64,000 nt of DNA from a virus: IMG/VR virus record IMGVR_UViG_2822494597_000001, one strand, 5' to 3'. The translations under genes and the position numbers were made by a program. The notes under the pieces are model-generated. The model worked only from the letters and a program-made list of their open reading frames with translations, had not been told where the DNA came from and did not search any database. Positions within the stretch are counted from its first letter, which is position 1. Every line of letters starts with the position of its first letter. This document shows positions 37,321-42,213 of the stretch, in pieces.

Positions 37321-37397
37321 GGGGCGTTAGGCAAGTGGTTTAAGCCAATTGACTTTCTATCAATTATTCGTGGGTTCGAATCCCATACGCCCTTCCA
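37321..37397 (+). tRNA. tRNA-Glu (TTC), U37 variant
   Basis: ATTGA-CTTTCTA-TCAAT; G1-U72; U73; CCA. Confidence 0.8.
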
Positions 37398-37401
37398 ATA
37401 T

Positions 37402-37473
37402 GCGATTATAGTGTTTAATGTAGCACGGCAGGTTGCCAACTTGTTAGTACGGGTTCAACTCCCGTTAGTCGCT
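37402..37473 (+). tRNA. tRNA-Gly (GCC)
   Basis: GCAGG-TTGCCAA-CTTGT; U73; D-loop lacks the GG pair. Confidence 0.8.
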
Positions 37474-37505
37474 TTTCTTTCTACATTTAATTTAAGGAGT
37501 CTAAT

Positions 37506-37757
37506 ATGAATTCTATTGAAGAATCTTTGAAAAATCATCCTATTGAAGAGTTTGGATTGCAAGGATGTACAATTCGTCTTCTCAAACAAAACCATATTCA
37601 TAGTTTATATGATTTGTTTCAAAAAACAGAAGAAGACTTTATGAAAATGGCATTTATTTATCAATTTAAAGAATACATGGGACATAAAAGATTTTTAAGA
37701 AGAAAAGAATTACATTTACTCTTAACTAAAATTGATGAATTTAAAAGTAGTATGTAA
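37506..37757 (+). CDS. Stand-alone RNA polymerase alpha-CTD-like protein
   Basis: PIEEFGL...LKQNHIHSLYDLFQKTEEDFMK resembles RpoA CTD TIEELDL...[28 protein letters not shown] RBS. Confidence 0.7.
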   Translation: MNSIEESLKNHPIEEFGLQGCTIRLLKQNHIHSLYDLFQKTEEDFMKMAFIYQFKEYMGHKRFLRRKELHLLLTKIDEFKSSM

Positions 37758-37787
37758 TACAGTTCTGGTTAACGAGGTGGATAAAGA

Positions 37788-37901
37788 ATGAGTGTGAAAT
37801 TAAACGATTTTTTACCAAATGCAGAGAATTTATTCTCTCAAAAAGAAATAGAACAAATGTTTATTGAAGCTGGTTATGAAGAGATTAAAGAAAACAGGTA
37901 G
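37788..37901 (+). CDS. Small hypothetical protein (37 aa)
   Basis: GAGGTGG RBS; MSVKLNDFLPNAENLFSQKEIEQMFIEAGYEEIKENR. Confidence 0.45.
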   Translation: MSVKLNDFLPNAENLFSQKEIEQMFIEAGYEEIKENR

Positions 37902-37956
37902 AACAATCATTATTGAATATTTTTCTATCAAAAAGAATATTATTTATTTACATTAC

Positions 37957-38028
37957 GGGCTATTAGTGTAGCGGTTATCACCCCTGCCTTCCAAGCAGGA
38001 AACATCGGTTCGATTCCGATATAGCCCT
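37957..38028 (+). tRNA. tRNA-Gly (TCC)
   Basis: CCTGC-CTTCCAA-GCAGG; U73. Confidence 0.92.
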
Positions 38029-38037
38029 TTTTATTAA

Positions 38038-38111
38038 CAGGATATAGGGTAATTTGGTCACCCACCACATTTGGGATGTGGTTCATGTAGGTTCGAGTCC
38101 TGCTATCCTGA
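38038..38111 (+). tRNA. tRNA-Pro (TGG)
   Basis: CCACA-TTTGGGA-TGTGG; C1-G72; A73. Confidence 0.92.
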
Positions 38112-38118
38112 TATTCAT

Positions 38119-38194
38119 GACGCTTGTAACTTCAGTGGTAGAAGCTACACCCAATTGTGTAGATAAGTCGGTGGTTCGATTCCATCCAAGCGTC
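38119..38194 (+). ncRNA. tRNA-like RNA, 8-bp (His-type) acceptor, 6-nt anticodon loop
   Basis: GACGCTTG/CAAGCGTC; D- and T-arms intact; CTACAC-CCAATT-GTGTAG. Confidence 0.6.
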
Positions 38195-38204
38195 CTAAAA
38201 AATT

Positions 38205-38380
38205 TAAGTGTATTGACACAGGCTAATGCGTGAGTGCTCGTTCGATTCGAGAGAAAAGGTTTTACCTAAAAGAGTTGGTTCTACTTGCAATAATTTAGTC
38301 CATGGATGTGGGGTTCGAATCCTGAAATTAGAAGAATCATATTTTTCTATAGCGTGGGGCAGTCTGTGTGAGTACATTTA
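38205..38380 (+). ncRNA. Double-T-arm RNA, copy 2
   Basis: Same terminal stem; CTCG-TTCGATT-CGAG and GGG-TTCGAAT-CCT hairpins. Confidence 0.65.
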
Positions 38381-38395
38381 GTCTCAATTATTTAT

Positions 38396-38480
38396 GGTGT
38401 TTGTGGTGGAATTGGTAGACACGCCTAACTGTGGATTAGGTGGGAGAAATCCCTTGCAGGTTCAAATCCTGTCATTCACC
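38396..38480 (+). tRNA. tRNA-His (GTG) with long variable arm
   Basis: G-1:C73; CCTAA-CTGTGGA-TTAGG; variable arm GGGA-GAAA-TCCC; Leu-like D-arm. Confidence 0.8.
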
Positions 38481-38487
38481 CTTTTAT

Positions 38488-38587
38488 GCGGAAGTATCTC
38501 AATTGGTAGAGAAGCCAACCGTTTGGTGAAAGACCCATGAAGGAAACGAGGTAGGCAGGGTTGTAGGTTCGAGTCCTATCTTCCGAA
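38488..38587 (+). ncRNA. tRNA-shaped RNA with branched extended anticodon arm
   Basis: Gly-like 5' end GCGGAAGTA, D-arm TCTC/GAGA, canonical T-arm; about 45-nt structured insert in place of the anticodon arm. Confidence 0.65.
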
Positions 38588-38799
38588 AAGTATCATTCAA
38601 TTATCGAGGGCGGGTTATCCCGATAACAAACTGCATTATTAAGGACTTGTATCCTTATATTGATGACTGCCTCTAAATATGGTCGCTATCGCCATAAGTC
38701 GTGTCTCATGGTGTCACACAATGAACGAAGGTTAAGGGAAAAACTCAAAACCCGATAGCAAAAGACGTAAACTGTGACGAGTATATGTTTCTATATTAT

Positions 38800-38872
38800 G
38801 GGTCTGTAGTTCAATTGGGAGAACACCATCCTTGCAAGAAGACAGTTGTAGGTTCAAATCCTATCAGGTCCA
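38800..38872 (+). tRNA. tRNA-Ala (TGC)
   Basis: G3-U70, A73, loop CTTGCAA; weak anticodon stem. Confidence 0.75.
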
Positions 38873-38919
38873 CTTTCTAACAATAATAATTAGTAGAACA
38901 AACTTTTTAATAATTTTTA

Positions 38920-40531: not shown

Positions 40532-40612
40532 AGTCAAGCAGACGGTCTAAGGTTAAAAACATCTTAGCGAAATGCGGTGAATCCTAACACGTTAAATAAA
40601 TGGAAGCTTATA
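40532..40612 (+). ncRNA. Unknown tRNA-proximal motif, copy B
   Basis: Homolog of 40296-40384. Confidence 0.5.
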
Positions 40613-40679
40613 AGGTGAACTGGAAATTGGAGACTGCGTGTAAAGCAGATACCGTAGGGTCAATTCCCTACCACCTTCT
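40611..40679 (+). pseudogene. Degenerate tRNA-Tyr-like (GTA) gene without long variable arm
   Basis: AAGGTG/CACCTT; CTGC-GTGTAAA-GCAG; T-loop GTCAATT; 2-bp D-stem. Confidence 0.45.
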
Positions 40680-40685
40680 TATCAT

Positions 40686-40767
40686 GCCGATTTAGCTTAG
40701 TGGTAAAGCGATTAGGAGTACTCATTAACATGACTATTGGACGTGGGTTCGATTCCTACATTCGGCT
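40686..40767 (+). ncRNA. tRNA-shaped RNA with enlarged anticodon arm
   Basis: GCCGATT/ATTCGGC, U73; D-arm GCTT/AAGC; canonical T-arm; 18-nt anticodon region containing TCAT-TAAC-ATGA. Confidence 0.6.
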
Positions 40768-40782
40768 TTTTAAACTTAATAT

Positions 40783-40853
40783 TACTGAGCATATGGGACC
40801 TTAAAAGTTATTAACTTTGACGGGAGTGAGTTCGATACTCACCTCAGTAACCA
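40783..40853 (+). ncRNA. D-armless tRNA-like RNA with encoded CCA
   Basis: TACTGAG/CTCAGTA-A-CCA; GTGAG-TTCGATA-CTCAC; core hairpin AAAGTT-ATT-AACTTT. Confidence 0.55.
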
Positions 40854-40856
40854 CAT

Positions 40857-40927
40857 GCGGTCATAGTGTAGTGGTAACATAACAGACTTCCAATCTGTTG
40901 TCACGGGTTCGAATCCCGTTGGTCGCT
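40857..40927 (+). tRNA. tRNA-Gly (TCC)
   Basis: ACAGA-CTTCCAA-TCTGT; U73. Confidence 0.9.
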
Positions 40928-41282
40928 TTATAAGAAGTATCCAAATCAGCAAATATTGCAGACCAGTTAGCAAAGGGTTACGTATTTATATATGGGCGCC
41001 TTTTGTTCGCAAGGATATATTCTTACAAAATTAGTTTGTAAGCTCTAAAAATCGGTGTTTCACTACCGTAAATGTGACCTATAGAGATTCCTTTTAAGGA
41101 CAATTTTAATGTGAGTGAGTCCTTATGCTTTTAAAAACTTGAATTGTTCTCACAAGCAATTCTACCCTCCAGGTCAAGTTTAGAGGTTTAGAGACCAGGC
41201 ATTTTTTTAGGCCTTTTTGCGCCAGTGCGAATTGCACATTTTTGGAGTTTTGAATGATAAAATCATTCTTGCTCCCTATCAT

Positions 41283-41355
41283 GGACGGTAATCTTGGTGG
41301 TGCGGGAGTGCGGTCTGCAAAACCGTAATGGACGGTTCGAATCCGTCACCGTTCT
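41283..41355 (+). tRNA. tRNA-Cys (GCA)
   Basis: GCGGT-CTGCAAA-ACCGT; U73; atypical D-arm. Confidence 0.8.
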
Positions 41356-41463
41356 TTAGCATTAACCTATGAATGTAGCGTGACACATTTTGCTGAATAG
41401 GGCGGTTGATAAATACTATTATCTATCCAGATTAGAGATTCCTTTCTAATCCGTCACAGAATC

Positions 41464-41544
41464 TCATAGAGGTAGACAAGGTTCTCTACACGCTTAGTAA
41501 TAACTAAGTTACCAGAGATGAGGGATATGCCGACCCTCCTATGA
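41464..41544 (+). ncRNA. Unknown four-way-junction motif, copy X
   Basis: TCATAG/CTATGA closing stem with GTAG/CTAC, CTTAGT/ACTAAG and GAGGG/CCCTC hairpins; homolog at 42838. Confidence 0.55.
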
Positions 41545-41554
41545 TTTTTATTTC

Positions 41555-41626
41555 ACCGATTTAGCTCAGTGGTAGAGCACCGTCTTGATAAGGCGTAGGT
41601 CAATGGTTCGAATCCGTTAGTCGGTA
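41555..41626 (+). tRNA. tRNA-Ile (GAT)
   Basis: Loop TTGATAA; A73. Confidence 0.88.
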
Positions 41627-41746
41627 TAGATTAAGAAAAGATGAAGAATAGATATCACTTTAGGTTGCAACCCTACTATTCGTGGGTTATATCCCTAACC
41701 TCTTCTTAATATTATTAAAACATTATAAATATATATTAAAGTTTAT

Positions 41747-41832
41747 GGCAGGATAGCAAAGTGGTTAAACGCAACGGACTGTAAATCCGTTCTCTTCGGA
41801 GTTCGGGGGTTCAAATCCCTCTCCTGCCCCCA
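41747..41832 (+). tRNA. tRNA-Tyr (GTA), C73
   Basis: ACGGA-CTGTAAA-TCCGT; long variable arm; CCA. Confidence 0.88.
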
Positions 41833-41835
41833 TAT

Positions 41836-41936
41836 GTGCCTTTAGCTTAATTGGTAGAGCCACGTAATTCTGTATATGACTCATTAGAGCATAAAACAGT
41901 CGTGAGGTCGGAGTTCGAATCTTCGATGGCACTCCA
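41836..41936 (+). ncRNA. tRNA-shaped RNA with long extended anticodon hairpin and CCA
   Basis: GTGCC/GGCAC acceptor, U73-CCA; D-arm GCTT/GAGC; CGGAG-TTCGAAT-CTTCG; arm ACG..CTGT..TATG..CTC-ATTA-GAG..CATA..ACAG..CGT. Confidence 0.7.
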
Positions 41937-41939
41937 TTC

Positions 41940-42012
41940 GCCAACTTAGCTCAGTAGGTAGAGCGATTGACTTGTAATCAATAGGTCGTAGGTTCGATTC
42001 CTACAGTTGGCA
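41940..42012 (+). tRNA. tRNA-Thr (TGT)
   Basis: ATTGA-CTTGTAA-TCAAT. Confidence 0.93.
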
Positions 42013-42136
42013 TTAGAACTTAATGAGTTTCTTTCTATCGGAAGGCACGGATAATGCCCTAATCCAAATATTCCAGTGAGAGTTTTATCTTCAAAAGGTG
42101 TTCGATTAAAAAACCAAATGAACCTTTTAGCCATAT

Positions 42137-42213
42137 GACGCATTGGTGAAACTGGCTAACACACTCGACTTTCTATCGAGCATTCAGGGGTTCGAATCCC
42201 CTATGCGTTGCCA
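42137..42213 (+). tRNA. tRNA-Glu (TTC), U37 variant
   Basis: CTCGA-CTTTCTA-TCGAG; G1-U72; CCA. Confidence 0.85.

Follow-up and report, generated by a model that had tools for sequence, protein, structure and literature searches.

A transfer RNA (tRNA) array in a 64,000-nucleotide stretch of DNA from a virus collection (IMG/VR record IMGVR_UViG_2822494597_000001; the whole stretch is called the window below) encodes six tRNAs for acidic amino acids in which position 37, directly 3' of the anticodon, is U and is followed by A38. Few features of tRNAs are as constant as the purine at position 37, to which a role in holding the reading frame is ascribed. The array occupies positions 35975–44336 on the plus strand and holds 31 tRNA genes called by ARAGORN together with other structured RNAs detected with Rfam. 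With 31 genes in 8,362 bp (3.7 per kb) it falls within the definition of a tRNA array unit (at least 20 genes and at least 2 per kb). Anticodon loops were extracted from the ARAGORN calls and the genes were scored against the Rfam tRNA model (RF00005, gathering score 29).

Four of the six genes, all on the plus strand, encode tRNA-Glu(UUC) with the loop CUUUCUA and are located at 37321–37397 (59.9 bits), 39889–39965 (61.2 bits), 40178–40253 (56.2 bits) and 42137–42213 (56.3 bits), the first, second and last of them with an encoded CCA. The other two, on the same strand, encode tRNA-Asp(GUC) with the loop CUGUCUA and a G73 discriminator, at 39970–40044 (66.3 bits) and 40386–40458 (69 bits). The starts of two genes are given as in ARAGORN (39970 and 40178), Rfam placing them one base later (39971 and 40179). 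A third tRNA-Asp(GUC), at 39400–39476 on the plus strand, was used as comparator since loop extraction and alignment gave it the canonical loop CUGUCAC (A37 C38); this sole A37 tRNA-Asp has a G1.A72 mismatch where its counterpart in Bacillus thuringiensis Bt407 has G1-C72, and the canonical copy may be decaying. All three kinds of loop had been read from the letters in the original prediction and were found again by ARAGORN and loop extraction, and its remark that the stems of these genes have otherwise diverged also proved correct. The anticodon stems vary among copies by compensated changes (ATTGA/TCAAT, TCCGA/TCGGA, CTCGG/CCGAG and CTCGA/TCGAG), and the four Glu genes are identical at 47–64 of 74 positions in pairwise comparisons (64–86%) and yet have one and the same loop.

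When comparing position 37 throughout the array, A or G was found in all other 24 tRNAs, whereas six of the seven acidic tRNAs have U (Fisher probability 7/736,281, ~1e-5). The six odd loops are all seven nucleotides (nt) long, contain U33 and are closed by a 5-bp stem, and all seven Glu and Asp genes score 55–69 bits against the threshold of 29 and show the cloverleaf of an elongator tRNA, from which six of them deviate by the missing purine at position 37. A mis-registration by ARAGORN, for example of a tRNA-Arg(UCU) read one base off, was considered and is excluded in the window by the 5-bp stems around a 7-nt loop and the good Rfam scores.

The array region could be aligned with the circular plasmid BTB_502p (501,911 bp) of Bacillus thuringiensis Bt407 over 93% of its length and with 96% identity. 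The orthologous array, at 97913–106370 of BTB_502p, contains 33 tRNA genes, and all six U37-A38 loops (four Glu and two Asp) are kept. The tRNA-Glu at 37321–37397 is identical in the two arrays, and six substitutions, all outside the loop, are spread over three of the six U37 genes: two in the tRNA-Glu at 39889–39965, one in the tRNA-Asp at 39970–40044 and three in the tRNA-Asp at 40386–40458. The original prediction had pointed to orthologous arrays as the place where a sequencing error or drift would be exposed by an absence of U37; the Bt407 array retains U37 in every one of the six genes, and with the same loops also present in phages, sequencing error and local drift are ruled out. The window has a G+C content of ~30%, and 12 isolate-sized DNA sequencing runs each contain half or more of the words sampled from the array (20 matching rows from 13 studies).

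A megablast search of the array against isolated phages gave matches confined to tRNA genes of Bacillus Herelleviridae, and a comparison with 120 phage contigs for close relatives of the element as a whole revealed nothing beyond tRNA-level similarity. The tRNA clusters of Bastillevirinae (Hobo, BM15, CM1, Deep Blue and Bc431v3) contain genes with 86–100% identity to four genes of the window and share the U37-A38 loops. The loop CUUUCUA is found in the tRNA-Glu of phage Hobo, to which the gene at 42137–42213 shows 94.6% identity, and CUGUCUA in the tRNA-Asp of phage CM1, which the gene at 39970–40044 resembles, while the tRNA-Glu at 40178–40253 is 93–100% identical to tRNA-Glu of Bacillus phages and of a phage contig (L057). 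The Bacillus Herelleviridae phages differ from the window in having one copy each, within clusters of 15–18 or more genes, whereas the megaplasmid array has four U37 Glu genes, two U37 Asp genes, a canonical Asp gene and much additional structured RNA.

To place these genes in a wider context public collections were scanned with patterns combining the loop and the T-arm, and every tRNA in the returned loci was typed by ARAGORN. Each scan covered up to ~120 loci and required a canonical T-loop, and genes were counted as Glu or Asp only where ARAGORN typed them so; the frequencies derived from these scans are therefore rough. Phage contigs selected by CTTTCTA contained at least 69 tRNA-Glu(UUC) genes with the loop CUUUCUA, and in the same loci, which are unselected with respect to Asp, a pyrimidine at position 37 (Y37) was seen in 18 of 43 tRNA-Asp. 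Five of the 749 other tRNAs in these loci were scored as Y37, but most of these are mis-typed and at most two are credible. Over all surveyed loci Y37 is confined to Glu and Asp, with at most ~1% among some 2,650 other tRNAs. When the phage contigs were instead scanned with a pattern open at position 37 (CTTTC...), no U37 was found among ~90 typed tRNA-Glu(UUC), the only locus with CTTTCTA (L003) having been counted with the selected set, and Y37 was present in 4 of 32 Asp genes. The pyrimidine-37 trait is therefore rare overall, the rough frequencies being ~1% for U37 in phage-contig tRNA-Glu and ~10% for Y37 in tRNA-Asp. A reciprocal scan for Asp-Y37 gave at least 37 genes (33 with U37 and 4 with C37), and here all 24 tRNA-Glu(UUC) in the loci have A37 and none U37. 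Glu-U37 and Asp-Y37 do occur together above expectation (odds ratio 5, p=0.009) but are separable traits.

A scan of one genome per prokaryotic species with the CTTTCTA pattern revealed at least 42 tRNA-Glu genes, approximately three quarters of them situated within arrays of 4–22 tRNAs per 8 kb. These genes are distributed over Bacteroidota, Verrucomicrobiota, Planctomycetota, Gammaproteobacteria, Cyanobacteria, Bacillota and Gracilibacteria, with Chryseobacterium, Aquimarina, Prosthecobacter, Cellvibrionaceae, Chamaesiphon, Romboutsia, Carnobacterium and Gracilibacteria among the carrier hosts. The Asp loops of the genomic arrays are often CUGUCUC or UUGUCUC, i.e. with U37 but with C38 kept, and C37 and G37 variants are also present in arrays, which fits the absence of A37 as what matters. 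A different pattern is seen for tRNA-Phe in the surveyed phage arrays (loci L003–L122), where position 37 is always a purine, G in 21 cases and A in 19; the tRNA-Phe(GAA) of the window (43045–43117) has G37-C38 instead of the A37 of bacteria, the MiaA site. A G1.U72 pair was noted in 83 of 97 U37 Glu genes against 46 of 87 A37 Glu genes and was considered as a second hallmark of the former, but was rejected as non-specific since it is frequent in A37 Glu genes as well. Recurring neighbours of Y37 arrays are homing endonucleases, the RNA ligase RtcB, a phosphoesterase and an RNase H-like protein; RtcB adjoins six Y37 loci and one locus with a purine at position 37 (R37), a difference that is suggestive but not significant.

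In the genomes that were checked the housekeeping tRNA-Glu is multi-copy and has A37 (loop CTTTCAC in Bacilli and several other phyla, TTTTCAT in Flavobacteriia), whereas U37 is present in one divergent gene only, which in one instance lies on a second replicon. Among 401 Bacilli species genomes about five tRNA-Glu-like U37 genes were found (~1% of the genomes). The U37 genes share with nuclease-evading tRNAs a location on a mobile element, as shown by the ortholog on the Bt407 megaplasmid, and a supernumerary status with A37 copies elsewhere in the same genomes. In two metagenome-assembled genomes, one of Woesearchaeota (L344, G409) and one of Verrucomicrobiaceae (L346, G411), the only tRNA-Glu-like match to the pattern is the U37 form and it is located outside arrays; this could reflect a housekeeping use of U37 or be an artefact of incomplete or contaminated bins. 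On a 721-kb second replicon of a member of Bacilli (L472, G248) two tRNA-Glu genes at 357–431 and 982–1056, ~600 bp apart, differ at five aligned positions including position 38, with the loops CUUUCUC and CUUUCUA.

To address whether U37 marks one recent lineage the genes were compared with the loop masked, which gave a mean identity of 0.56–0.59 for Y37 genes and 0.52–0.575 for R37 (A37 or G37) genes. Close pairs that differ in the state of position 37 were also found, one with 93% identity (CCA and CAC) and one with 91% (CTA and CGA). The site can evidently flip and still stays a pyrimidine while the rest of the gene diverges, which indicates selection; judged by these alignments U37 is not a single young lineage but appears to be held by selection. 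In the window, alignment of the Glu genes showed the D-loop, variable loop and T-arm of a chromosomal tRNA-Glu of Bacillus type. The tRNAs for Gly, Ala and Val also have C36, and among ~90 of them in the surveyed phage loci none has Y37, so tolerance of a pyrimidine next to C36 is not sufficient as an explanation.

Identity marks for the synthetases are partly kept. All 28 surveyed Y37 Asp genes, as well as those in the window, have G73, which together with the anticodon GUC is what aspartyl-tRNA synthetase (AspRS) looks for, but the two U37 Asp genes have A38, and C38 is a minor identity element of the Escherichia coli AspRS. The identity set of the E. coli glutamyl-tRNA synthetase (GluRS) comprises U34-U35-C36, U11-A24 of the augmented D-helix and A37. 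U11-A24 (D-stem GUGA/ACAC) is present in the three Glu genes at 39889, 40178 and 42137 while the gene at 37321 reads GGCA and hence has G11, and all four Glu genes deviate at position 37, in a set that may not be that of Bacillus. A37 was found in only 6 of the 77 Glu(UUC) genes of the CUUUCUA-selected loci, and a near-complete decoding set usually has the U37 gene as its sole Glu(UUC). From the kept identity marks and this sole-copy position the genes are read as decoders and not as specialised non-ribosomal molecules, and we infer that the U37 tRNAs are probably working, chargeable Glu and Asp decoders, charging and ribosome use being predicted from their sequences. The original prediction had offered a dedicated non-ribosomal use as one possibility, which is disfavoured by the same two observations and by the lack of a recurring neighbour of the LanB or glutamyl-tRNA reductase (GluTR) type, and had also suggested altered framing, for which the ordinary 7-nt loops with U33 give no support.

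The favoured explanation, held here tentatively and with a little less than even confidence, is that the U37 decoders have been selected to lose a determinant, A37(C38), that is read by tRNA-damaging enzymes. A mobile element, here a megaplasmid of the Bacillus cereus group, would carry working tRNA-Glu and tRNA-Asp decoders in which the anticodons are fixed, and the bases 3' of the anticodon would be replaced instead, from A37-C38 in the host to U37-A38, and kept by selection. The changed tRNA would no longer be a substrate for an enzyme recognising the U35-C36-A37(-C38) face, which may be an anticodon nuclease used in defence or competition or another tRNA-inactivating enzyme, and once the tRNA-Glu or tRNA-Asp of the host is destroyed the copies of the element would keep the frequent GAA and GAU codons readable. 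Escape would most likely be the advantage. In the host U35-C36 followed by A37(-C38) is shared by Glu and Asp and is found in no other tRNA, and in the open reading frames of the window GAA (5.9%) and GAT (5.35%) are the second and third commonest codons, so a loss of tRNA-Glu or tRNA-Asp should be especially damaging.

Enzymes that recognise this face of the loop are on record. The gamma-toxin of Kluyveromyces lactis requires U34-U35-C36-A37-C38, the tRNA-Glu stem-loop is no longer cleaved after any change at position 37, and a change of C38 to A or G reduces cleavage by at least 90% (PMC2275089); the bases changed in the window, 37 and 38, are thus determinants of this enzyme, which is a yeast toxin. 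The RloC enzymes of Geobacillus kaustophilus and Acinetobacter baylyi have tRNA-Glu as their preferred or natural target (PMC3458546, PMC3874168), EndoU CdiA toxins cleave tRNA-Glu within its anticodon loop (PMC9990079, PMC9424206), and both tRNA-Asp and tRNA-Glu are cut by CdiA-CT NC101, here at the acceptor end (PMC5737660). That phage tRNAs evade nucleases by changes in the loop is an accepted idea (PMC10264068, PMC11555353). The genetic context contains genes of the tRNA-repair type, a Thg1-like and a HAD_SAK gene in the window and RtcB beside six Y37 arrays elsewhere.

Several observations weigh against escape. No nuclease or modifying enzyme of bacterial tRNA-Glu or tRNA-Asp that requires A37 was identified in host or element, and the Bt407 plasmid has no AAA_13 (RloC/PrrC-type) gene. 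Dependence on A37 is on record for gamma-toxin and not for RloC or the EndoU toxins, and colicin E5, the known anticodon nuclease which cuts tRNA-Asp, reads positions 34–35. U dominates although G37 would be the cheapest way to lose A37, and the genes are carried by a resident megaplasmid that has kept one A37 Asp gene, and not by a lytic phage. The experimentally studied arrays carry A37 (Glu and Asp in T5, Glu in the Anabaena trn operon), and the published work on them consequently does not bear on U37. Finally, Asp-Y37 loci with exclusively A37 Glu genes mean that one shared agent is not required. The original prediction of a selected escape from a nuclease directed at acidic-amino-acid tRNAs is therefore upheld in part: the loops are conserved in Bt407, recur elsewhere, are restricted to Glu and Asp and are supernumerary, and a known tRNA-Glu nuclease reads exactly these bases (PMC2275089), while no cognate nuclease was found. 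A single nuclease for both tRNAs is not called for, the two traits often occurring apart.

The codon usage is also in line with a rather unlikely alternative in which U37(A38) alters the handling of the two tRNAs by the cell's own machinery, through independence of 2-methyladenosine at position 37 (m2A37, RlmN) or of wobble modification, changed kinetics of GluRS and AspRS or an adjusted affinity for the ribosome, with the effect that over-expressed foreign tRNAs decode GAA and GAU efficiently or spare host enzymes. Glu and Asp account for 7 of the 31 array genes, position 37 also varies in other array isoacceptors, with about half of the array tRNA-Phe including that of the window having G37, and the preference for U over G is more easily explained if U has a positive role. 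tRNAs with C36 need no bulky modification at position 37 and a pyrimidine should cost least there, but the Gly, Ala and Val tRNAs with the same C36 never have one. It would also be odd, if decoding were simply improved, that U37 is found in no housekeeping tRNA-Glu of the 401 Bacilli genomes; the loss of A37 and C38, identity elements for GluRS and AspRS in E. coli, should rather hinder charging, and we know of no benefit of a pyrimidine at position 37.

The co-occurrence of Glu-U37 and Asp-Y37 is what linkage would give and is in line with the alternative, judged improbable, that U37 is a tolerated marker of descent which arose once or a few times in an ancient family of mobile-array Glu and Asp genes, was almost neutral owing to the strength of the C36-G pair, and was spread by horizontal transfer. 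Arrays are on record as moving horizontally (PMC4758250, PMC8421152), and the array loop is CUUUCUA whether the housekeeping loop of the host is CTTTCAC or TTTTCAT. However, the Y37 genes have reached the same divergence as A37 genes in the sequence outside the loop (~56–59% identity), and a neutral site should during this time have reverted to a purine many times, the close pairs showing how quickly it can change. The Bacillus-type body of the window Glu genes suggests a local origin or long residence, and the restriction of the pyrimidine to two different isoacceptors and no others is not what such a marker predicts. With a pyrimidine at position 37 weaker binding to the A-site is expected, as would suit tRNAs that donate their amino acid to LanB-type dehydratases or glutamyl-tRNA reductase, that act as decoys of tRNA-binding proteins or that shift the reading frame. 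Such a use is very improbable given that the U37 gene is usually the sole Glu(UUC) of its set, with all four in the window being U37, that the anticodons are intact in loops of the ordinary 7 nt with U33, and that beside Y37 arrays there is no recurring gene for LanB, GluTR or another enzyme of this kind; to our knowledge Asp-tRNA has no non-ribosomal use.

The array appears to be transcribed. RNA-seq contigs of 0.6–2.9 kb from a related strain (two studies, one organism) cover nearly the whole array with ~97% identity, and their depth over the array is very uneven, from 1.8 to 3,895, which fits better with transcription as long precursors than with carry-over of DNA. In one run (X15) the depth peaks in tRNA-free spacers, with 2,000–3,900 at 40747–41328, ~900 at 38419–38709 and ~520 at 36091–36672, far above the ~80 seen over most tRNA genes, which suggests abundant non-tRNA RNAs within the array.

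Besides the acidic tRNAs the array contains several unusual elements. In the tRNA-His(GUG) at 38397–38481 (85 nt) a Leu-like D-arm is combined with a long variable arm, and the tRNA-Gln(UUG) at 39483–39570 (88 nt) has a long Ser/Tyr-like variable arm; such combinations of a class II body and a class I anticodon could be identity switches or mistranslating tRNAs. A normal-sized tRNA-Gln is present in the Bt407 array and absent from the window. The call of a tRNA-Thr(AGU) at 40686–40767 (82 nt, 47.8 bits), with the loop GGAGUAC and a non-canonical anticodon arm, is kept in Bt407. The skipping-rope RNA motif (RF02924) occurs twice, at 41462–41546 (62.8 bits) and 42838–42948 (48.7 bits), and weak tRNA-like elements missed by ARAGORN were found with RF00005 at 38488–38587 (100 nt, 36 bits) and 41283–41355 (34.9 bits).

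Among the neighbouring genes two are located 11–14 kb downstream of the array on the plus strand and match RNA-repair families, a Thg1-like tRNA 5'-end guanylyltransferase/repair enzyme at 55800–56861 (PF04446, E=2.3e-30; phrog_4717, E=6e-102) and the HAD domain of 'Swiss Army Knife' RNA-repair proteins (HAD_SAK_2) at 58352–58807 (PF18143, E=1.1e-26). Other flanking genes encode Ig-like surface proteins, a secretion ATPase, a RecD2-type helicase and a NAD-dependent ligase, and three tandem paralogues of 1,216–1,238 residues at 21653–32891 have no Pfam match but strong matches to the phage family phrog_22121. A putative HEPN toxin downstream of the array (44780–45253) was rejected, as the Pfam match is below threshold (E=0.004) and the translation has no Rx4-6H motif.

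When compared with known systems the U37 genes come closest to the nuclease-evading tRNAs of phages, with which they share the location on mobile elements, the host anticodon, the changed loop bases and the supernumerary status. Mycobacteriophage tRNAs have been described in relation to VapC/MazF-type anticodon nucleases (PMC10264068), tRNA-Tyr of phage T5 in relation to retron-Eco7 PtuAB and T5 tRNA-Lys in relation to PARIS (PMC11555353, PMC12409363). The present genes differ in having the pyrimidine at position 37, which is hardly ever found otherwise, and in being Glu and Asp tRNAs, isoacceptors which those studies do not discuss; they are also found in many phyla and in plasmid and chromosomal arrays, and the likeness is one of genes alone, with no cognate nuclease known. 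tRNA-Glu is frequently targeted at its anticodon loop, as seen for gamma-toxin (PMC2275089), RloC (PMC2610378, PMC3458546, PMC3874168) and EndoU CdiA-CT STECO31/Ym43969, but none of these nucleases is known to act on tRNA-Asp via position 37 and none was found on the element. Like the tRNA array units or L-arrays (Tran et al. 2016, PMC4758250) and the Anabaena trn operon (Santamaria-Gomez et al. 2021, PMC8421152) the window array is situated on a transferable replicon and adds isodecoder redundancy, with homing endonucleases and RNA-repair genes nearby, RtcB in those systems and the Thg1-like and HAD_SAK genes in the window; operon-like transcription is probably another common feature. In contrast, the array papers (PMC4758250, PMC8421152) do not mention position 37, the Anabaena tRNA-Glu has A37, and Y37 marks only a subset of arrays.

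A literature search on U37 or pyrimidine 37 in phage or array tRNAs found no description, and neither position 37 nor the loops of Glu and Asp come up in the main publications on loop variants of phage tRNAs and on tRNA arrays. What appears to be new is the conserved pyrimidine 37 in mobile Glu and Asp tRNAs, while mobile-element tRNAs with altered anticodon loops were already known. Taken further, the genes may represent a widespread and undescribed class of decoders, the first elongator tRNAs working without a purine at position 37, kept by mobile elements in at least six phyla as replacements for host tRNAs destroyed by a broadly distributed family of enzymes reading U35-C36-A37; we regard this broader proposal as doubtful but worth stating. 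If it is true, the loop motif CUUUCUA / CUGUCYN would be a genomic flag for finding those enzymes and their hosts. B. thuringiensis, its megaplasmid and Bastille-type phages can be cultured and engineered and offer a tractable system, and tRNA annotation pipelines and tRNA engineering could allow for a tolerated pyrimidine 37. If the U37 tRNAs decode normally the purine-37 rule would need qualifying for GAN codons, and if escape is their function they would suggest that tRNA-Glu and tRNA-Asp are attacked widely and would provide a simple sequence marker of this attack.

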